A stretch of DNA of 64,000 nucleotides, from positions 1,758,355 through 1,822,354 of the forward strand of contig CAVTRL010000001.1 in assembly GCA_963737125.1 (NCBI GenBank), in the 5' to 3' direction. Made by a program: the position numbers and the translations under genes. The DNA is from an uncultured Chloroflexia bacterium (GTDB lineage: Bacteria > Chloroflexota > UBA5177). A model generated the notes under the pieces. That model was not told the origin of the DNA. It was given only the letters and a program-made list of their open reading frames with translations, and did no database searches. Shown piece after piece: positions 35,237 to 45,468 of this stretch; position 1 is the first letter of the stretch, and every line of letters starts with the position of its first letter.

Positions 35237-36220
35237 ATGGCGACGCCGAGCACAGATGTGCTGGTCGATGGTTTACGGCGGCGCAACCGGAGAGCTGCCG
35301 GAAGGCTCATCAGCCTGATTGAGGATCAGTCCGCCGAGGTAGAAGCGGTGATGCGGGAGGTGTACCCATACACCGGCAAGGCGTATTTCATCGGCGTCAC
35401 GGGACCGCCGGGCGCCGGAAAGAGCACGGTGGTGGACGAATTGATACGCGTGGTGCGCGAAACGGGTGACGCCATTGCGGTGGTCGCGGTGGATCCGAAC
35501 AGCCCGTTTTCGGGCGGCGCGATTCTGGGGGACCGGATCCGAATGATGCGCCACGCTTCGGATTCCGGTGTGTTCATTCGCAGCATGGGCGCACGCGGGC
35601 ATCTCGGCGGCATCGCCACGGCGACTCTGAACGCCATGTTGATCCTCGATGCCATGGGGAACGATATCGTCCTGGTGGAAACGGTGGGAGTGGGACAGTC
35701 GGAACTGGAGGTGGCGTCGACGGCCGATACCACGATCGTGATTTTGCCGCCGGGCCAGGGGGATGGTGTGCAGGCGATCAAGGCAGGCATCATGGAGATT
35801 GCAGATGTTTACGTCGTAAATAAGGCGGATCATCCCCAGACCAAGCGCACGGTGGCGGAGCTACGCGAACTGCTGAGAACCGCGCCCGTGCAACCGCCAT
35901 GGGTGCCTCCCATCGTGGAAACCATCGGCACACAGAACGCCGGTATTGAAGACCTGTGGGAGGCGATTACCAAGCATCGTGACTACCTGGAGCGAAGCGG
36001 AGAGCTCGAGCAGCGACGGACTGACCGGATCGAGCGCGAGATAGTGGACATCGTGGAAAGGCGTCTGAGATCGGAATTTTTGCTACCACAGCTCCAAACT
36101 GAGGAATTTACCAGCATGGTTCAGCAGGCAGCACGCCGGGAGTTGAGCCCCTACGAGGTGGCGGAACGTCTGTTACCCGCAGACCGACTACCGAGAAAGC
36201 AGGCATCGATTGGACGATAA
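35237..36220 (+). CDS. meaB: MeaB/ArgK-family G-protein chaperone for B12-dependent acyl-CoA mutase
   Basis: P-loop ..[12 protein letters not shown].., ..[10 protein letters not shown].., ..VVNKADH..; start set at MATPSTD within track ORF 35147..36220. Confidence 0.85.
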
Positions 36221-37863
36221 CGCAGGTCTCGAGGCCGAGTTCCAGGCATGGCGCGAGCATCGGTACGGGAAGGATCGCGCCGTTTCATTCACGACTCTTT
36301 CCGATCACGGCATCAAGCCGCTGTATTCGCCGCTCGACACGCCGCCCGCGAGCTTTGAGGCCAAGGTCGGCTGGCCTGCCCAGTACCCGTATACGCGTGG
36401 CATCTACGGAAATATGTATCGCGGCCGTCTCTGGACCATGCGTCAGTTTGCCGGGTTCGGCACAGCTCGGGATACAAACGAGCGGTTTCACTACTTGCTT
36501 GAGCACGGCATGACCGGCCTCTCGGTGGCCTTCGATAATCCCACTCTGATGGGAATCGACTCGGACGATCCGCGCGCGCTGGGAGAGGTGGGACGGACCG
36601 GCGTCGCGATGGATTCGCTGGCCGACATGGAAGTGCTGTTCGAAGGGATTCCACTGGATCGGGTCAGCACCTCGATGACCATCAACGCTCCGGCCGCTGT
36701 TCTGCTGGCAATGTACGTCGCCGTAGGGGAGAAACAGGGCGTTCCGAGCGTTCAACTCACGGGGACGCTACAGAACGACATTTTGAAGGAGTACATCGCC
36801 CAGAAGGAATGGATTTATCCCCCGGCAGCGGGCGTCAAACTGATCGTCGATACGGTTGAATTTGCGATGGAGCACATGCCAAAGTACAACCCGATCAGCA
36901 TCAGCGGCTATCACATTCGCGAAGCGGGCGCGACTGCCGTACAGGAACTGGCTTTCACGATTGCCGACGGCGTGACCTACGTAGAAGCATGCATTGCGAG
37001 GGGCCTGGAGGTGGATGCTTTCGCACCGCGACTCTCGTTCTTCTGGAACTCGCACATCGATTTCTTCGAGGAAATTGCGAAGTTTCGCGCGGCGCGACGC
37101 ATGTGGGCGTCGATCATGCGGGATACGTTCGGAGCGAGGGATCCGAAATCGTGGCTGATGCGTTTCCACACGCAGACGGCGGGAGTGTCGCTCACGGCCC
37201 AGCAGCCCGAGAACAACATCGTGCGGACCGCTCTGGAGGCGATGGCGGCGGTGCTGGGCGGCACGCAGTCGCTCCACACCAACTCGATGGACGAGGTGCT
37301 TGCTTTACCGACCGAGAAGGCGGTTGAAATTGCGCTCCGGACGCAGCAGATCATCGCCCACGAGACCGGCGTGGTGAACACGGTGGACCCACTCGGCGGA
37401 TCGTACTTCGTGGAGGCGCTGACAGACGAATGGAGGCCGGCGCACGCCAATACTTCGCGACGGATCGAGGAGTTGGGCGGCGTGCTGGCAGGGATCGAGG
37501 CCGGATTCTTCCAGCGAGAGATCGGCGAGTCGGCGTTCCACTATCAGCGGCAACTGGAACGCGGCGAGAAGGTGATGGTGGGAGTCAATCAATTCGTGAC
37601 GGACGCGCCGATCGATATTCCCGATACTCAGTATCGATCCCGAGGTGGAACGATCGCAGGTGGCGCGCGTGCTGGAACTCAAAAAAGCCCGGACGGAAAA
37701 CCGCGTACACGACGCGCTGGCGCGGGTAAAACTGGCCGCGGCGGACGGCCGGAACGTCATGCCATCGCTGCTGGCGGCCGTACGCGAGTACGCGACCATT
37801 GGAGAAATGTCGGAAGCAATGAAGGTTGAGTTCGGAAGTTATCGAGAGCCCGCTCTGGTGTAA
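36210..37863 (+). CDS. B12-dependent acyl-CoA mutase, large (substrate-binding) subunit; ICM-like signature; frameshift near 37625
   Basis: ..[18 protein letters not shown].. and ..[16 protein letters not shown].. plus ..[14 protein letters not shown]..; C-terminal 72 aa in a second frame (track ORF 37645..37863). Confidence 0.8.
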
Positions 37864-38330: not shown

Positions 38331-38654
38331 CTACAGCTTACTCAGTGCAAGCACCAGCAGCACCAGCGGCAGCGATAGAAACGACCCTACGATGGTGGTT
38401 GCCATTGGTGCCACCGACAACGCGCGCCACTGCGAAATTTCGACAGCGGTGTGCGAGGGAGCTCGCAGCATGGCACGCGTACCGACTATCGCCGCGCCCA
38501 GCAGGACACAATAGAAGACGCCGAGGAGTGCAGTCTGCGCGACCGAGAATGCCAGGAACCGGCTGAAGAGGAAGCCCTCCGCGAACCAGATGAGAACCGA
38601 CGCGCCGATATAGATAGAGGTTCGAATCATTTTATTTTGGTCCGCCAGCATAAT
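38331..38654 (-). CDS. hypothetical membrane protein
   Basis: Hydrophobic track ORF 38331..38735; upstream part overlaps the tRNA-Leu gene, so the start is set at the internal Met. Confidence 0.3.
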   Translation of the reverse strand: MMLADQNKMIRTSIYIGASVLIWFAEGFLFSRFLAFSVAQTALLGVFYCVLLGAAIVGTRAMLRAPSHTAVEISQWRALSVAPMATTIVGSFLSLPLVLLVLALSKL

Positions 38655-38705
38655 GACGGCGCCCCGCCGACTTTTCGACAGGGCGCCGTAGGGTTTCGAG
38701 ATGAT

Positions 38706-38793
38706 TGGTGCGCCCGACTGGACTCGAACCAGCACTCCCTTAACGGGAACTAGGCCCTCAACCTAGCGCGTCTACCTGTTCCGCCACGGGCGC
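38706..38793 (-). tRNA. tRNA-Leu (anticodon GAG)
   Basis: Reverse complement folds as a class II tRNA: acceptor GCGCCCG/CGGGCGC, anticodon stem CTAGG/CCTAG with loop TTGAGGG, long variable arm (tcccgttaaggga), T-loop TTCGAGT, encoded CCA. Confidence 0.8.
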
Positions 38794-38891: not shown

Positions 38892-39435
38892 ATGGCACGG
38901 GTAACGACCGGTACGGGAGACGAAGGCTGGACCGATCTGCTCGGCTCGGAACGCGTGCCCAAGTACCATCCCCGTCCGGAAACGTTCGGAACGGTCGACG
39001 AGGCGACGTCCGCGCTGGGGCTAGCCCGGGCGCATCTCGAACGATGCGGCGCTCAAAGATCAGATTTACCGGCTCCAGCAGGATCTATACGTGCTGATGG
39101 CGGAGCTCGCGACGCCTGCCGAGAACTACGCCAAAGTCGACTTCAAAATTCGATCGGAACACGTGGAGCGCCTCGAAAAGGAAAGCGAAGTGCTCAAAGC
39201 GGAAGTCGAAATCGGAAAGGTATTCGTGGTGCCGGGGGCGACGGTGGCGGGAGCCGCGCTGGACGTGGCACGCACGGTGGTTCGCCGCGCTGAGCGCCAG
39301 GTGGCCCGGCTTTATCACGAAGGCGACATAACGAACGCATTCGCGCTGCGCTATCTGAACCGACTGTCGGATCTGTTATTCATCATGGCGAGGTACGAGG
39401 AAGCTACGACCAGGGAGCCGCCGGACGACAACTAG
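38892..39435 (+). CDS. PduO-type ATP:cob(I)alamin adenosyltransferase (frameshift near 39050)
   Basis: MARVTTGTGDEGWTDLLGSERVPK.. N-terminus and ..DLYVLMAELATP.. C-terminal half in two frames; stop codon TAG (39433-39435) abuts the inverted repeat. Confidence 0.7.
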
Positions 39436-39451
39436 TGGGTCACTTGTGTTG
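39432..39451. repeat. left terminal inverted repeat (with flanking C-TA)
   Basis: ctagtgggtcacttgtgttg, perfect reverse complement of 45449-45468. Confidence 0.8.
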
Positions 39452-39543
39452 GTCAAAGCCACTGGTTCGTGCTGCTCGTCGTCTCCGGGGTGACCCCTTC
39501 AAGGCGCCACGAGGGAATGGCTCTGGCCGACCCCCTTGACCCA

Positions 39544-40002
39544 CTAAGAGCGACTCGTGGTCAGCGGAAGCCCAAGCAGGAGAATAGCCCGTGCAACCAG
39601 CACCCCTGCTCCCACCGCCACGAGCGCCATGAGGCCATGCAGCACCTCCTCCAGCACCACGGGACCCGGCGAAGTATTAGTGTAAAAACTCTGAAAGCCA
39701 ATGGCGACGAGGCTGAGAAAGAGGACGACTTCACCAGCGAGAGCCAGGGCAGCATACTGTAGGGATTGAAGAGCGCCGCGGTGGTACCTCTGCGGCCGAA
39801 GGAACGCCAGCCAGATGATGCCTCGCTCGGAGGCAACGACAAGAAGACTGAGGGCCACGATGCCGACGATCACCGCCACTCCACATTGAAAAGTCCCCAG
39901 CCCGACACTAATTGGGAGGCCGCTCGGACGGTGAAGGAAGGGTGTGCTGGTGGCTATCCCAGCCAGAACCGCAAGGCCGCCAAGGACGCAGAACGTTTTC
40001 AC
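39544..40002 (-). CDS. hypothetical polytopic membrane protein (family A, copy 1)
   Basis: 152 aa, about 4 TM helices; N-terminal 60 aa clearly paralogous to ORF 42717..43436 (..LAVLAGI(A/G)(T/A)STPFL(H/Q)RP..GTFQ..). Confidence 0.5.
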   Translation of the reverse strand: MKTFCVLGGLAVLAGIATSTPFLHRPSGLPISVGLGTFQCGVAVIVGIVALSLLVVASERGIIWLAFLRPQRYHRGALQSLQYAALALAGEVVLFLSLVAIGFQSFYTNTSPGPVVLEEVLHGLMALVAVGAGVLVARAILLLGLPLTTSRS

Positions 40003-40020
40003 AGCATGTCCGCCTTCAGG

Positions 40021-40548
40021 TCACGGCAGTTGCACGGTACCCCGAAATGTCACCGTTACGGGTCCAGGTGGAGCGTGCTGCCCGTGCACGAATTGCTCCG
40101 TGTACGTTCCGCGCCCACGAGCATGTGCGAACCGCCCCGTGCCCCCGGTAATCGTGAACGTCCCAACCTGGGCAGGTGTACCTGGAGGGACTGGACGGAA
40201 GCAGGCAGAGAACGTGGAGCGGTACGTCAGGCTGTTACCTCCGGCGCCACGAAGCCGCCCCGGTCCTTTCATCGGAATACAGCCGCTCGGATTGGGAACG
40301 CCGACGCTGTGGGAGCGGAGAGTGCTGCGACCGAGGATGGTTGCCGTTCCGCTCGCAACAACCGCCTCCCGCAACTGGTGCGCGTCCGGAAGGTGAGACA
40401 TCCCGTGATAGGTGGCACGAAAGGCTATACGACCGAACAGGCCGCTGGCATGGGTACCAGGAACGGGTGATGAGAGTGCCGCGCACGCTGCAGCAGCAAC
40501 AGCCAACCATGAGAATCGTTGCATCATGTCATCGGACCTCCCTTTCAC
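40021..40548 (-). CDS. hypothetical secreted protein
   Basis: 175 aa; predicted signal peptide (..MMQRFSWLAVAAAACAALSSP..), Gly/Thr-rich beta-like remainder. Confidence 0.45.
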   Translation of the reverse strand: MKGRSDDMMQRFSWLAVAAAACAALSSPVPGTHASGLFGRIAFRATYHGMSHLPDAHQLREAVVASGTATILGRSTLRSHSVGVPNPSGCIPMKGPGRLRGAGGNSLTYRSTFSACFRPVPPGTPAQVGTFTITGGTGRFAHARGRGTYTEQFVHGQHAPPGPVTVTFRGTVQLP

Positions 40549-41987
40549 CGTACCCCGTCAATTCGGACGCTGAAGTCGGCGCAGTGTGCCGAAACGATGT
40601 CTACGCGCAGCCTGCCTTTGATCCGCACCGTGGTATAAAACTCCCCCGGTCCCGGCATCAGACCGCGAACAGGAACTGCCACGCGCTTCGCGGCCGCGGT
40701 CTGCACGGCGATGCGCACGCCGGTCACACCGGGACACGGAGGTGCATCGGGATACACGCCCGCCGTTACCTGCCACGGTCCGGTCGCGGTAAACCACGGG
40801 GAATACGTATGGAGCTGCGGTCTGGCGTTGTACGTGCCGGAGAAGAAGATCGCCGGGACCACGTCATGCCACGTCTTGCCGCTGTCGCTGCTGCGCACCA
40901 ACCGGCGCAATCTGCCTGCGGCGTAGCAGGTAGAGGCGCTGGGGCACGCGATGGCAGTAAGGGGAGACGCGCCCGGGAGGTTCACCACCCTCCAGCTCTT
41001 CCCTCCATCGGTCGTCCTGGCGGTGGTTCCTGCCCTGCCCAGGGCAATGCAGGTGGTCGGCGTGGGACAGGAAAGGGCACCCATGCCCGGGGTCAGCACG
41101 TGGTTGGCTCCTGGACCCGGTCCTCCAGCCACGGCGCCGAGTCCGGGGATCAAGTGGCGCTTCCAGGTGCGGAACCCGTCCTGGGTGGTAACGGCCACTG
41201 CGTGGTACACGCCGCCATGGTAGTAGCTCGCCCCGGCGAAACAGATGCGCTGCGTTGGACAGGCGATCGCGTGGAACTCGTAGCACGCTAAGGGGGAACA
41301 CGCCGCTCCGCCAACATGGCTGATGAGCCACCGTTTCGCGCCGCCCGTGCTCCGTCCAATTACGTTGTAGCCACCCGCGTAACAGACCGTGGCGCTGGGG
41401 CAGGAGAGCGGCACTGATACACCGCCGCCAAAATCACGCGTCAGCGCTCCCGTGCTCCTCCAGCTCCTGCCGCCATCCATGGTCCGGATGACTTCGTCCC
41501 CCGAGGGGGGCCGAAAGAGCTGAACCGAGCAAGTAGACCCATTTACGCAGGCAAGTCCGGGGAGAGCGCATCCTAGCGGGTGAGATCGTTCCGCCCAGGT
41601 GCGGCCGCCATTAGTGGTGTTCAGCACAGGAAGCGGAGAGGAGCCATTGAGGCAGCCTTCGGTGAGGGCAAAGCAGGCACTGATAGCGGGACAGGTGATC
41701 GTGGCAAGGGAACTCGGCGACCGGCTGGGCTGTGCCTGCCAGGTGGCCCCCGCGTCATGCGTACTGAGGATCGAGCCCTGACTTCCGACGACATAGCACA
41801 CGCGCACGCTGGGACACGAGATGTCTCGGAGCGTTTCCTCCGCCGTTCCCGAGGGTAGGGCGGATTGCTCAGTCGCGGGAGACGCAGCCCGCGTTGTGAA
41901 ATCAGGACTGCCGGCTCCTGCTGCGGTGAGCACGAGAGCGAGCAGGAAGGGCACGAGTACGGAATGATGCTGCCGTATATGTGTCAC
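40545..41987 (-). CDS. secreted Asp-box (BNR)-repeat beta-propeller protein with repeated CPxxxxC motifs
   Basis: About 7 repeats each with C-P-x-x-x-x-C-(Y/F)-x-x-G followed by an Asp-box-like [ST]xDxGx[ST]W (e.g. TTDGGKSWR, SSDSGKTWH); signal-peptide-like start at a GTG (..VTHIRQHHSVLVPFLLALVLTAAGAGS..). The 5' part of track ORF 40545..42509 is rejected. Confidence 0.55.
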   Translation of the reverse strand: MTHIRQHHSVLVPFLLALVLTAAGAGSPDFTTRAASPATEQSALPSGTAEETLRDISCPSVRVCYVVGSQGSILSTHDAGATWQAQPSRSPSSLATITCPAISACFALTEGCLNGSSPLPVLNTTNGGRTWAERSHPLGCALPGLACVNGSTCSVQLFRPPSGDEVIRTMDGGRSWRSTGALTRDFGGGVSVPLSCPSATVCYAGGYNVIGRSTGGAKRWLISHVGGAACSPLACYEFHAIACPTQRICFAGASYYHGGVYHAVAVTTQDGFRTWKRHLIPGLGAVAGGPGPGANHVLTPGMGALSCPTPTTCIALGRAGTTARTTDGGKSWRVVNLPGASPLTAIACPSASTCYAAGRLRRLVRSSDSGKTWHDVVPAIFFSGTYNARPQLHTYSPWFTATGPWQVTAGVYPDAPPCPGVTGVRIAVQTAAAKRVAVPVRGLMPGPGEFYTTVRIKGRLRVDIVSAHCADFSVRIDGVR

Positions 41988-41989
41988 GG

Positions 41990-42490
41990 CTATGCCGCTC
42001 GACGAGCCAGGAATAGTAGCGCGACGGGGCCCAGGATAATTCCTATGACTGCGGCGATGAGGAAGCCGAAGGCGGCCGCAGTGAGAAACGCGTATCCGGC
42101 CGTTGGGCCGGCCGTGCAGCTCGCTTTCTCGAAGCAGGGATTGGCGTAGCCGGCGGACAGTGCGGCTACGACCAGATCGACAAAGGCAAGGATACCGCCA
42201 AGGGCATAGATGATCGTAGCCTGACCGTAGATGCCGTCTCGCGCGCGAGCAGCTGAGAAGAGCAGCGCACCGCACGGTAGCAGCGCGAAGGCGAGGCTGG
42301 TGAGGAACACAGATCCGCCATATCGCTGCGCAATTGAACCGGAGAGGAGCGCGAGGGCCGAGAGGATGGCACAGAGTGGGCCGGCCAGCACGACCGCCCA
42401 CGCCACGTGTCTGCCCGCGGACATGCCCGGCTCGTCCCCTCGTATCGTCAGTTGCTGTTTCCTGTGCCGTGTTGCAGCGGTCGGTTCCAT
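41990..42490 (-). CDS. hypothetical polytopic membrane protein (family B, copy 1)
   Basis: 166 aa; shares (F/Y)ANPC(F/W)..(A/P)SCT(A/G)G loop motif and TM layout with ORF 43438..43935. Confidence 0.5.
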   Translation of the reverse strand: MEPTAATRHRKQQLTIRGDEPGMSAGRHVAWAVVLAGPLCAILSALALLSGSIAQRYGGSVFLTSLAFALLPCGALLFSAARARDGIYGQATIIYALGGILAFVDLVVAALSAGYANPCFEKASCTAGPTAGYAFLTAAAFGFLIAAVIGIILGPVALLFLARRAA

Positions 42491-42716
42491 GAGTCCCTCC
42501 TTGCAGCACTCACTCTATGCCTGTCCTGCACAGAACGCGTGAGGATGACTACCGATGGTCTCTTGGGGAGAATCACGTAGGTGGACAGCCGGGTACCGCG
42601 ACCGAGGGGACAGCGCAGATATGTTTGCTCGGACGATTCCGTATACCTGGCCGATCTAGGCCCACCGAAAAGGTAGCGCATCACCGTCTCAATCATCGAC
42701 CGTTTGTGCTCCAGAG

Positions 42717-43436
42717 CTAGCGTCCAACCAAGAACGGATAGAGTTCGGCCCTGTGCTTCCACCGCCCCACCAGCACGTAGGAGCCGGAGGATGGGAAGAA
42801 GAGATAGCCGCAATAGAACAGGAATCGCCTGGCGTTCTTGTCGCGCCTATATGCATCCGACATGGGATCCAAGCGCAGAACCGGGCCAGCGGTCTGCGGA
42901 CTGTCTCCAAACATAACCGCCTTACCCGATGCGAGGTTCCATCCACGCACCGTGATAACGTCTGTGAGCGCGGGGCCTGCCGCCGAGACAGCCTTTTGGT
43001 ACGGGGCACGCGGCCTGGTCCTCGTGTGGAGGATCCCGTCCACTGTGGACGGATTGACCCACAGCGGAGCTCGACCAAACGCGTGGTGAAAGGCCCCGGC
43101 GAGTCGCTGCATTGGAGCTCGGGGTGGGCAATTCTTCGGCACCGGCCCGTAGTGGGGGGACGGCTTGTTAGCGCTGACCATTGCGGCGCCGGCCGGCCAG
43201 AGTACGCCAGCCGCAGACGCCACGGCCAGGAGAGCCAGCATCACCATCCCGTCTGCCGCCGCCACCACCACTTGAAAGGTCCCCGGTCCGACACTCGATG
43301 AGAGGCTGGTCGGACGTTGAAGGAACGGCGTGCTGGCACCTATCCCCGCCAGAACCGCAAGGGCACCAATGACCAGGAACGACTTCACGGACAACTGCTG
43401 TATCCGCGGCGACCCTTTGGGCATCTCCCCAGACAT
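42717..43436 (-). CDS. hypothetical membrane protein (family A, copy 2) with divergent C-terminal region
   Basis: 239 aa; N-terminus paralogous to 39544..40002; C-terminal half unlike copy 1 and may be partly non-coding read-through. Confidence 0.4.
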   Translation of the reverse strand: MSGEMPKGSPRIQQLSVKSFLVIGALAVLAGIGASTPFLQRPTSLSSSVGPGTFQVVVAAADGMVMLALLAVASAAGVLWPAGAAMVSANKPSPHYGPVPKNCPPRAPMQRLAGAFHHAFGRAPLWVNPSTVDGILHTRTRPRAPYQKAVSAAGPALTDVITVRGWNLASGKAVMFGDSPQTAGPVLRLDPMSDAYRRDKNARRFLFYCGYLFFPSSGSYVLVGRWKHRAELYPFLVGR

Positions 43437-43437
43437 G

Positions 43438-43935
43438 TCAGGGCCCGTGCCCGCTCACAATGTGCTCAGTCGATCGTCGTGCCGCGCGAAGGAGCAGGGG
43501 CGAAAGAAGCAGAGCAACGGCTGCGGCCAGCAGCAAGACGAGTAGCGCAGCCTTGAGGATGCTGTCCTCGAGGGATGACCCGCCCGTACAGCTTGGGTTG
43601 TCCCAGCAGGGGTTGGCGAAGACCCTGAACAGGGCGACCGCTCCGATGCCGGGCAGAAGAACCACCCCTCCTGCAAGAGACGCGCTCCTGGCTGCAGGCA
43701 GATCCGCCCGGCGCGCCAATTTCGCTGCCCGGAGGAGCATCTGGCAGGGGACCATCCCAAGGCCGACTACCCCAACCACGATGGCTATTTGTACGCCGAT
43801 GGGGAAGCGCAATACTCTGTCGTCGTACAGAGCTGTGCCAAGGACGACGGCACACACTCCGAGGGCAGCGAGCACCGCACCGGCGACTGCTGCGAGGTAG
43901 GCCATCCATTGTGAGATCGGAGCGGAGCGGGTCAT
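43438..43935 (-). CDS. hypothetical polytopic membrane protein (family B, copy 2)
   Basis: 165 aa; ..FANPCWDNPSCTGG.. motif paralogous to 41990..42490. Confidence 0.5.
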   Translation of the reverse strand: MTRSAPISQWMAYLAAVAGAVLAALGVCAVVLGTALYDDRVLRFPIGVQIAIVVGVVGLGMVPCQMLLRAAKLARRADLPAARSASLAGGVVLLPGIGAVALFRVFANPCWDNPSCTGGSSLEDSILKAALLVLLLAAAVALLLSPLLLRAARRSTEHIVSGHGP

Positions 43936-44063
43936 CTCGGTGCCTCGATAGCTCGACTTTATACCGGCGCAGAGGGGAAGACATCCGTAAGACCACGGAA
44001 GATCTCGTCCTCAGCCGAAGAGATGGGGAGCGGCCCCGCCAGCCGGCTGCGCTCGACTCCTGG

Positions 44064-44089
44064 CGGGTCACGTGTATTGGTCACAACCC
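44064..44089. repeat. internal degenerate copy of the left terminal repeat
   Basis: gcgggtcacgtgtattggtcacaacc vs left end gtgggtcacttgtgttggtcaaagcc: 21/26 identical, same orientation as the left end, no TA flank. Confidence 0.55.
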
Positions 44090-44094
44090 TTGTC

Positions 44095-45421
44095 TCAGGC
44101 TGCCCGTCGGCGGTGGAGTGGCCGCCGGGTATAGGCACCTGAGCCACCGAGGGCATGACGTCGCTCCCGTGCTCGCTGGCGTCGGGCCTGCCGTTTCCCA
44201 CCCCACTCGAAGGGCGTCGGCTCTCGGTTCCAGGCACGGGCTGTTGCCTCCAGCCAGTCGATGATCTCCTCGGGCGTCTTGGGATGGGCGCCGTCGAGTG
44301 CGCGCCGCTTGAGGATGCGCTGAATCGACTCGCACATATTGAGGTACGAGCCGCCCAGCGGGGTGAAGAGGGGCATGATCCCGTGGTGGAAGAGCCACAG
44401 GATGAGATCGACGGTGTAGTGCCCGGTGAGGTTATCCCAGACCAGGAGCATGCGGAGCGGTGGGAGGTCCTGAGGAAGGGTGGTGCGGATCGTCAGCCCC
44501 TCTTGCCAGCGCTGCCAGCACCGTCGGTTCTCCTCCGGCGGGAGGGCGTCCGGCTTAGGCAGGGTTGCCAGGATGGCCAGCAACTCCGCTTCGAGCCAGG
44601 GATGCAGGATGGCATTAGCACCGCTTCGCACCCCTTTCACCCGCACGTGCCCAGTGGCGGGATGGAAGAGCGTCAACTGCTTGGCCGTGCCTTCCCGGAC
44701 ATACTCATGGGGATAGCGAACCGGCTCTCCAGCCGGATGCCAGTGGGAGCCGGGATAGGGGAGCGTCCCATACGGACCCGCCTCGTCTTCTGCCCAGACC
44801 GGCGGGAGGGACTGGGTATATGCCGCCTGGATCAACTTTTTTTCGCTGCGGCATCGGGATCGACGACCGTCACGGTTCCACTTTTCCGCTTCCTGACCAC
44901 GGTCCCTGTCTCGCACCAACTCTGATCCTTGGTCCAGACAAAGCCGGCATCGTGCAAGACGCACCAGATGGTGTAGGTGCTGATCCCGGGCAGGCCATCC
45001 GGCGCGCGCGTCGCAGCGTGGTGAGTGACCACGTCGCCGTGCCATCCGTGTTCCGATCCGGTGTGCGCCGCACCTCCCGCAGAATCCGCTCTTGCTCGGT
45101 CTCGGTGTAGCGCTTCGGCTGCCCACCACCATGATGCTCGACCAGCGCGTCGATCCCGTCCCGGTTGAACCGGGTCACCAGATGGGCAACGGCATCGCCA
45201 CTCTTGCGACCGGCACGGCGTGCTGCGCTCTCGAAGCTTGCGCCATCCGCGACCGCGAGGAGTTCCTTGGCTCGCACCACCTGAGCGGCGGGATCGGTGC
45301 GCGATCGACTCACTAGTTCAAGGTGGAGGCGTTCGTTGGGCGTAAGGGGACGCAAGGGATCTTTCTGGCGAGCCGGCATGGCAGACTCCGGGGAAGGCGA
45401 GGCGGCGAATACCTGCCACAA
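44095..45421 (-). CDS. IS630/Tc1-family DDE transposase, split over three reading frames
   Basis: N-terminal HTH frame (track ORF 44870..45421), middle frame (44832..45032: ..[31 protein letters not shown]), DDE_3 frame (44095..45132: ..LVWDNLTGH.., ..[16 protein letters not shown]..); the last switch is at an A7 tract (plus-strand T7 at 44837-44843). Confidence 0.7.
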
Positions 45422-45448
45422 GCCTACTGCCGTCGATTGGCAGTCATC

Positions 45449-45468
45449 AACACAAGTGACCCACTAGA
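45449..45468. repeat. right terminal inverted repeat (with flanking TA-G)
   Basis: caacacaagtgacccactag; its CTA (45464-45466) is the minus-strand TAG stop codon of tsaD. Confidence 0.8.

Follow-up and report, generated by a model that had tools for sequence, protein, structure and literature searches.

Insertion sequences (ISs) of the IS630/Tc1-mariner type are normally described as having a transposase gene and no cargo besides. Among ISs in general, several kinds of larger IS-driven unit have been defined, namely the composite transposon, the transposable module, the transporter IS and the mobile insertion cassette; the transposable module consists of a single IS together with adjacent DNA that ends in a surrogate inverted repeat (IR) (PMC9330008). 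The subject here is a 6-kb unit in a 64-kb stretch of DNA from an uncultured Chloroflexia bacterium (the window, in whose positions all coordinates are given). In this unit an IS630-family IS and a miniature inverted-repeat transposable element (MITE) of the same family bracket six cargo genes: two for membrane proteins of a family A (A1 and A2), two for membrane proteins of a family B (B1 and B2), one for a Cys-rich beta-propeller and one for a small signal-peptide protein, called the barrel below. The 4.4-kb cargo operon is probably a mosaic of accessory envelope genes built up in IS-rich DNA, and not one dedicated machine. The most noteworthy result, and the one that is new here, is that B is carried repeatedly within IS630-type ends.

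The window unit resembles the IS-driven units already defined (PMC9330008) in that an IS lies at one end and a cognate IR at the other with passengers between them, the targets are TA/CTAG, and the outer ends are intact while the inner ends have decayed. Among related loci, the likeness extends to a non-autonomous IR-bounded derivative (metagenome loci L003/L004) and to an IS with a passenger inside its IRs (L093). The unit differs in that its second end is a 114-bp MITE, with no second IS copy, and in that its passenger is an orphan membrane protein, where others have a resistance or catabolic gene; its transposition, moreover, is something we infer. Judged by its sequence, the structure fits a composite transposon or a transposable module.

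The limits of the unit are set by the 19-mer TAGTGGGTCACTTGTGTTG, which occurs exactly twice in the window, in inverted orientation at 39433 and 45466, against a chance expectation of 0.01. These identical outer IRs bear out the placement of the genes inside an IS630-bounded element by a preliminary description of this DNA. The outer arms extend over 30 nt with 87% complementarity (pair I2). The outer tip of the MITE (39433-39451) is an intact right-end-type IR of the 6-kb unit, whereas its inner tip (from 39546 downwards) has 5 mismatches in 19 and provides the TAG stop codon of A1. On the other side, the outer IR of the IS (45448-45466) is intact and the inner IR (44061-44079) has 4 mismatches in 19, its terminal TA having become TG. 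Intact outer ends combined with decayed inner ends would be expected if such a unit transposed in one piece. On one side of the unit a PduO-type adenosyltransferase gene ends, on the other tsaD. The stop codon of each is the TAG within a terminal CTAG, CTAG is present at both outer junctions, and precise loss of the unit would leave AACTAGAA, with both stop codons kept. The boundaries of the IS follow from homology to more than 50 metagenome copies, which are 1.41-1.44 kb long and 65-77% identical at the DNA level.

Table 1. Features of the 6-kb unit, in window coordinates
Feature	Position	Strand	Description
Entire IR-bounded unit	39433-45466		6,034 bp; IS, cargo and MITE
MITE-like element	39433-39546		114 bp, same IS630 family; inverted pair I1
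A1	39544-40002	-	152 aa; four hydrophobic segments; full-length member of orphan family A
Barrel (signal-peptide) protein	40021-40548	-	probable start ATG at 40527; 168 aa
Propeller	40545-41987	-	480 aa; GTG start; predicted seven-blade Asp-box (BNR) propeller, PSII_BNR/Ycf48-like
B1	41990-42490	-	166 aa; four hydrophobic segments; divergent paralog of B2
A2	42717-43436	-	239-aa chimera; residues 1-82 family A, residues 83-239 unrelated tail
B2	43438-43935	-	165 aa; four hydrophobic segments; core family B gene
B2 upstream region	43936-44060	-	boundaries from alignment and blastn
IS630-family IS	44061-45466	-	1406 bp, canonical length

The transposase carries HTH_32/HTH_29 and DDE_3 domains, has NCBIfam transpos_IS630 matches on both of its open reading frames (ORFs), and is about 60% identical at the protein level to annotated transposases on Deinococcus, Microvirga and Leptolyngbya plasmids. 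Its coding region (44095-45421) runs through three frames, with one shift at an A7G run near 44840 and a second in a GC-rich run near 45005; split in this way, the gene yields ORFs that each score under the full-length cut-off. The A7G run near 44840 resembles a slippery site. The IR TAGTGGGTCASTTGTNTTG is found in at least 120 metagenome contigs (L095-L214), and no cargo homolog was found among the loci fetched. Many of the matches stand some 100-125 nt away from where a contig ends, which fits a high-copy repeat that breaks assemblies. Two IS630-type ends lie back to back, with one CTAG in common, at L093 2680-2700 and L166 1491-1526, which suggests nested or tandem insertion into a regenerated palindromic target.

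An association of the cargo with IS630 elements beyond the window proved real for B. At L003/L004, IRs at 2096 (plus strand) and 3037 (minus strand), with one mismatch each, bound a 942-bp element that has TA on both sides and occupies a chromosomal site whose flanks are unrelated to those of the window. This element contains a remnant of the left end of the IS, a diverged vestige of the inner IR tip, B with its 125-nt leader, an A pseudogene and a right-end IR, and looks like the window unit minus the transposase and most of the cargo. L093 holds a 2.3-kb element with the order IR, B, transposase, IR; its B is 56% identical to that of the window and its transposase 52% identical to the C-terminal transposase ORF of the window. 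L094 is 99.8% identical to L093 from the exact IR tip onward and has a different left flank, which is direct evidence of two insertions of the B-carrying element. The remaining close loci (L002 and L005-7) keep only B and 68 nt upstream of it (79-85% DNA identity) between unrelated flanks; no IS ends are detectable at L005-7, and L002 has at most a weak IR-like site with 5 mismatches. Since 52 transposase-bearing loci among the 120 fetched carry no cargo gene, B recurs, to judge by these sequences, as a passenger of IS630-type ends, but only in a minority of cases.

The region directly upstream of B2 is retained with the gene: its proximal 68 nt are kept at every close B locus, and the entire 125 nt in L003/L004. 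This stretch is taken to be the promoter and leader of B, although a promoter scan finds no sigma-70 consensus in it.

All six ORFs of the preliminary description are present between 39544 and 43935 and co-oriented on the minus strand. In five of them the in-frame GC content of third codon positions (GC3) is higher than that of second positions (GC2), and in the signal-peptide protein the two are equal, which is compatible with coding. The B1 stop codon lies 2 nt ahead of the propeller start, the propeller and barrel genes overlap by 4 nt, and 18 nt separate the barrel gene from A1, a spacing that suggests co-translation; the B2 stop codon lies 1 nt ahead of the A2 start. Ratios of non-synonymous to synonymous substitution (dN/dS) are 0.2-0.6, all below 1, for B, propeller and barrel, so that these genes are probably functional yet quick to evolve. 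Scans for promoters, terminators and RNA families yield nothing beyond shuffled expectation, a known tRNA being the sole RNA family. The 226-nt gap between A2 and B1 holds an 82-aa ORF (42448-42716) that overlaps the B1 start and is called as a gene on a contig of the Logan collection; its GC3 signal is weak (0.64 against a GC2 of 0.55), and it is probably not a gene.

The preliminary description had proposed one conserved module, in which an A/B membrane complex is partnered with the propeller. The distribution of homologs does not support this. All four gene types occur together only in the window and in Logan contig L001, whose six proteins are identical to those of the window and which is probably the same strain. 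Close B homologs (53-79% identity) are found in five other contexts (L002, L005-7, L003/L004, L093/L094), all without propeller and barrel. A follows B in L003/L004 only, as about 190 nt of frameshifted A2-type N-terminus, and on the JGI contig of the metagenome A protein P0002 a short upstream gene, a candidate B, ends 1 nt ahead of the A start, as in the window; B-A adjacency is thus seen in two to three metagenome contigs. Propeller homologs of 39-57% identity (L009-L012, L217) have other neighbours: A and B are absent at the propeller loci L008, L009, L012 and L217, and the barrel at L009, L012 and L217. A scan of GTDB with the propeller subfamily returned 80 loci at 31% identity or less, largely in metagenome-assembled genomes (MAGs) of Acidimicrobiia and other Actinomycetota, Acidobacteriota, Chloroflexota and Dormibacterota, and none of the 80 has a relative of A, B or the barrel. 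A general pairing of such propellers with small membrane proteins was also considered and is rejected, as a small polytopic membrane ORF adjoins the distant propeller at only 3 of 76 loci. The barrel has a homolog at 52% identity (L215/L216) with no propeller alongside. The sole other barrel-propeller pair is in L008, where a barrel gene (68% identical) and a propeller gene (55%) are adjacent and divergently oriented. An IS630 transposase fragment (46% identical) in the same segment, L008 2358-4850, ends 48 nt from the barrel gene, so that all four cargo gene types have been seen beside IS630 remnants somewhere. These comparisons leave two weak linkages, B-A and barrel-propeller, and no evidence for a conserved four- or six-gene module. 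The preliminary description had itself named a confident family match and a lack of co-occurrence as arguments against a new module, and this is largely what is found, the propeller scoring well above a Pfam gathering threshold and its homologs living apart from B.

Relatives of A and B were sought among 5.8 billion proteins. A1 and A2 are 59% identical over 66 N-terminal residues (E 2e-16) and 72% identical over 197 nt of DNA. The family likeness claimed for them stands for the N-terminal third and fails beyond it, the tail of A2 being unrelated. A search with A2 returns, apart from A2, just three metagenome proteins, 169-170 aa long. The intact metagenome A combines an A2-type N-terminus (83% identity) with an A1-type C-terminus and the same LTTSRS end; because the metagenome proteins share the A1 C-terminus, A1 can be recognised as a divergent paralog of full length that is 63% identical to the homolog P0002 (170 aa). 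Residues 1-82 of A2 are the family A N-terminus, 83% identical to P0002, while residues 83-239 (157 aa) have no detectable relative, although their base composition is coding-like (GC3 above GC2). No A-like C-terminus is present in the A2 region in any frame, and sequencing error is accordingly rejected as the cause of the chimera, no frameshifted remnant of such a C-terminus being there. The description of these proteins as membrane proteins holds for A1, B1 and B2, which have four hydrophobic segments each, and in part for A2, which keeps only the first two of the four of family A.

B1 and B2 are 35% identical over 57 residues (E 6e-7; overall range 29-35%). The shared loop motif noticed earlier is confirmed: ANPCFEKASCTAG in B1 and ANPCWDNPSCTGG in B2 occupy the same loop and follow the pattern ANPC(F/W)xxxSCT(A/G)G, so that two paralogous B...A units are indeed present. 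The Cys pair of B1 sits in the loop between segments 3 and 4. The B2 loop, ANPCWDNPxCTxGS, is predicted to lie on the outer side and is invariant in core family B. A search with B2 returns itself and six others; among 185,579 GTDB species genomes a scan for B gave 26 pattern matches and zero relatives, and no member was found on PLSDB plasmids. The A and B proteins match nothing in Pfam, NCBIfam, PADLOC, PHROGs or PDB sequences, profiles included. For the six proteins or their homologs, PADLOC gave no match at E up to 1 and PHROGs only insignificant ones (E 0.02 or above). The propeller and the transposase are the only proteins that Pfam, NCBIfam, PADLOC and PHROG profiles classified. Common ancestry of A and B was considered and is not demonstrable (profile-profile probability 27%). 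By these searches, A and B appear as genuine orphans, two tiny, lineage-restricted families of predicted four-helix membrane proteins. The view that the cargo proteins are undescribed holds for A and B; the propeller and the barrel can be placed, the former in a Pfam family and the latter by its predicted fold.

Compared with Pfam PSII_BNR (PF14870; gathering threshold 27), the propeller reaches 45.7 bits (E 6.8e-12). A word-indexed search found 199 relatives, many source-labelled 'photosystem II stability/assembly factor-like', and a precomputed PF14870 assignment is present on nearly all of the 120 homologs listed of these 199. The Cys-rich, 480-aa Asp-box character first noted is borne out by 7 Asp-box-like motifs ([ST]xDxGxxW), 8 Cx4-6C[YFIV] motifs and 20 Cys. 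In the alignment of the subfamily (A4, members 39-80% identical), 18 of the 20 Cys are invariant, as one pair per blade and one pair in the C-terminal 100 residues; the latter (C418 and C469) belongs to a beta domain of about 100 residues. An AlphaFold (AF2) model built from the subfamily alignment has a predicted local distance difference test score (pLDDT) of 80 and a predicted template modelling (TM) score of 0.82. Foldseek places it closest to Ycf48 (5ojr/2xbg; E about 1e-10, target-normalised TM 0.67-0.70), followed by GH74 xyloglucanases, sortilin Vps10 domains and the Streptomyces DAIP propeller. Sequence and model together thus assign the protein to the seven-blade Asp-box beta-propellers of the PSII_BNR/COG4447, Ycf48-like family.

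The likeness to Ycf48/HCF136 lies in the seven-blade Asp-box fold and the secreted or lumenal-type nature of the protein, and Ycf48 is its best structural match. The propeller differs in that identity in the structural alignment is only 16-18%, a Cys pair is conserved in every blade and a 100-residue C-terminal beta domain is added. An orthologous relation to Ycf48 was considered and is ruled out, since the NCBIfam equivalog cut-off (PRK13684) stands at 326 bits and the propeller reaches 48.7; no photosystem genes were found in the roughly 20 kb examined around the element. The clade is known from metagenomes; its nearest genome-resolved relatives are at most 31% identical and come largely from Actinomycetota, Acidobacteriota and Chloroflexota MAGs. 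Near the N-terminus, residues 7-28 make up a hydrophobic segment, a signal or an anchor. The many conserved Cys and the N-terminal hydrophobic segments argue for export of both propeller and barrel, and the Cys pairs of the propeller are predicted to form disulfides. Ycf48, sortilin Vps10 and DAIP propellers are binding scaffolds, and by analogy the propeller is most likely a binding scaffold rather than an enzyme.

The barrel protein probably begins at an ATG preceded by a GGGAGG ribosome-binding site, and the same 168 residues are called on the Logan contig. It carries a TITGGTGRFxxAxG motif. The family comprises about 68 cluster representatives at 50% identity among 1.84 billion proteins and has no characterised member. 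Pfam Dirigent gives E 0.012 and 15.8 bits, under the threshold of 29.1, and a profile of 32 relatives weakly matches the dirigent protein 7r5z, PodA 5k21 and allene oxide cyclase (AOC) at E 0.002-0.5. The AF2 model (pLDDT 86) shows a signal-type helix followed by eight strands. Among its 30 best Foldseek matches in the PDB, AOC, dirigent/pterocarpan synthase, the PloI4 cyclase and uncharacterised bacterial barrels predominate, with a best TM of 0.45-0.52 and probabilities mostly near 1.0. Because of these weak profile matches, the confident model and the leading structural matches, the protein is read as a secreted AOC/dirigent-like eight-stranded barrel. It shares with the AOC/dirigent/PodA/DUF3224 superfamily an eight-stranded antiparallel barrel, a mature length of about 140 residues, a GGTGxFxxAxG motif towards the C-terminal end and, with plant dirigent proteins, secretion; it differs in that its sequence matches stay under every curated threshold and its TM is only about 0.5.

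According to the mosaic interpretation, two separately linked gene sets were combined between the IS and its cognate MITE. The first would be a B-A cassette for small inner-membrane proteins, in which B, with its own upstream region, rides IS630-type ends; the window would hold it in two copies, B2-A2, with A truncated and fused to unrelated sequence, and the divergent B1...A1. The second set, the exported propeller and barrel, would be nested between B1 and A1. B2-A2 may be transcribed as one unit and B1-propeller-barrel-A1, whose genes would be translationally coupled, as another. Propeller and barrel would be secreted and lie on the outside of the membrane, where the propeller would probably act as a non-catalytic peptide- or glycan-binding scaffold, in the manner of Ycf48, sortilin Vps10 and DAIP, and the barrel may bind a small hydrophobic ligand. 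A and B would sit in the membrane with their termini inside and the Cys-pair loop of B outside. The whole unit, or at least the IS, B-A and the distal IR, would have been moved by TA-targeted IS630 transposition acting through the intact outer IRs.

Several points weigh against this interpretation. The transposase frame is broken twice, and the IS copy or the element may now be immobile. Neither an empty site nor a second copy of the 6-kb unit was found, and the scan that gave at least 120 metagenome IR loci showed no empty site. The IS is so abundant at these loci, including the 52 that have IR and transposase and no cargo gene, that some of the adjacency to B could be chance. As to function, we know of no ligand, partner or phenotype for non-photosynthetic Ycf48-like propellers, and what the model says about function is for this reason drawn from analogy. 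Finally, the tight spacing of B1, propeller, barrel and A1 looks like that of a genuine four-component operon. Such spacing suits translational coupling, and the four genes could then encode one envelope system, in which a B/A platform docks the secreted pair and B2-A2 is a degenerating duplicate. The two paralogous B...A units within one island, the candidate B ending 1 nt before A on the P0002 contig, the B followed by an A remnant in L003/L004, the renewed barrel-propeller adjacency in L008 and the predicted extracytoplasmic or membrane location of all four proteins are in keeping with such a system. Yet the B/A set is joined to the propeller/barrel set at no other locus, and beside an intact B, A is a pseudogene or absent (L003/L004, L002, L005, L093). 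The rarity of a small polytopic neighbour at distant propeller loci also speaks against it, as does the divergent arrangement in L008, which means that the operon is not conserved. A complex specific to this lineage is possible, just one close genome having been compared for the B1-A1 segment, though we regard it as unlikely.

The cargo could also be resident chromosomal DNA, around which an IS630 copy and a MITE inserted independently at TA, by the stops of tsaD and A1; the proximity of B to such ends would then reflect the abundance of the IS. Two independent insertions fit the window equally well: if either the MITE or the IS is deleted by itself, the genes next to it again have plausible stop codons, a 2-bp TA duplication is uninformative, typical copies of this very abundant IS have no cargo, and the GC content of the island (0.61-0.65) matches that of its surroundings. 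The other B loci tell against this. At a different site, L003/L004 share with the window the outer left IR, the inner-IR remnant, B with its 125-nt leader, the N-terminus of A and the right-end IR, and the B element of L093/L094 has its junction at the exact IR tip on two flanks; the intact outer and degenerate inner ends, as said, are expected of a unit moving as a whole. Independent insertion is on balance rather unlikely. It is improbable, and distinctly more so, that the small membrane proteins serve the mobile element itself, stabilising an IS630 derivative through addiction, exclusion, immunity or defence. The B ORF is intact and its outer-loop motif invariant in all six contexts, with dN/dS in the range given above, and B and the linked transposase diverge roughly in step between the window and L093 (56% and 52%). 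No PADLOC or PHROG model was matched, however, a partner toxin or nuclease is absent, B stands without detectable IS ends in L005-7 and beside at most the weak site in L002, and it is missing from the 52 transposase-bearing loci. A broader version, for which we see a rather small chance, holds that one IS630 clade, a transporter-IS lineage, has long carried B, accompanied by A or not, as its dedicated passenger, and that B benefits the element or its host, for instance by serving retention, exclusion or the envelope; B1-propeller-barrel-A1 would in that case be an enlarged form, with propeller and barrel anchored by B and A as a new envelope complex.

The locus is thus described as an IS-driven, passenger-carrying element, and no evidence was found for a new multi-protein system. 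If the mosaic interpretation is true, it provides a worked example of IS630 elements and MITEs capturing and shuffling small envelope genes in poorly sampled soil or sediment bacteria. Family B is flagged as an orphan membrane family found repeatedly inside IS630-type ends, and its carriage is of some interest for insertion-sequence research because IS630/Tc1-mariner elements are usually regarded as cargo-free. No long-standing question is opened, the propeller and the barrel being new members of large, catalogued and functionally obscure families.

The quality of the assembly bears on the flanking genes. A methylmalonyl-CoA mutase gene (36210-37863) has Pfam profile positions 2-445 in one ORF and 453-512 in another frame, and the PduO-type adenosyltransferase gene (38892-39435) has profile positions 1-49 and 68-170 in different frames; the two split genes are either real pseudogenes or the result of long-read indel errors. 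With the transposase, this makes three frameshifted genes in a 10-kb stretch, for which reason assembly indel errors may be involved; such errors do not explain the A2 chimera, as no A C-terminus exists there in any frame. Between these two flanking genes, a tRNA-Leu(GAG) (38706-38793) is overlapped on its 5' side by a 134-aa hydrophobic ORF (38331-38735), a putative gene with no Pfam match.

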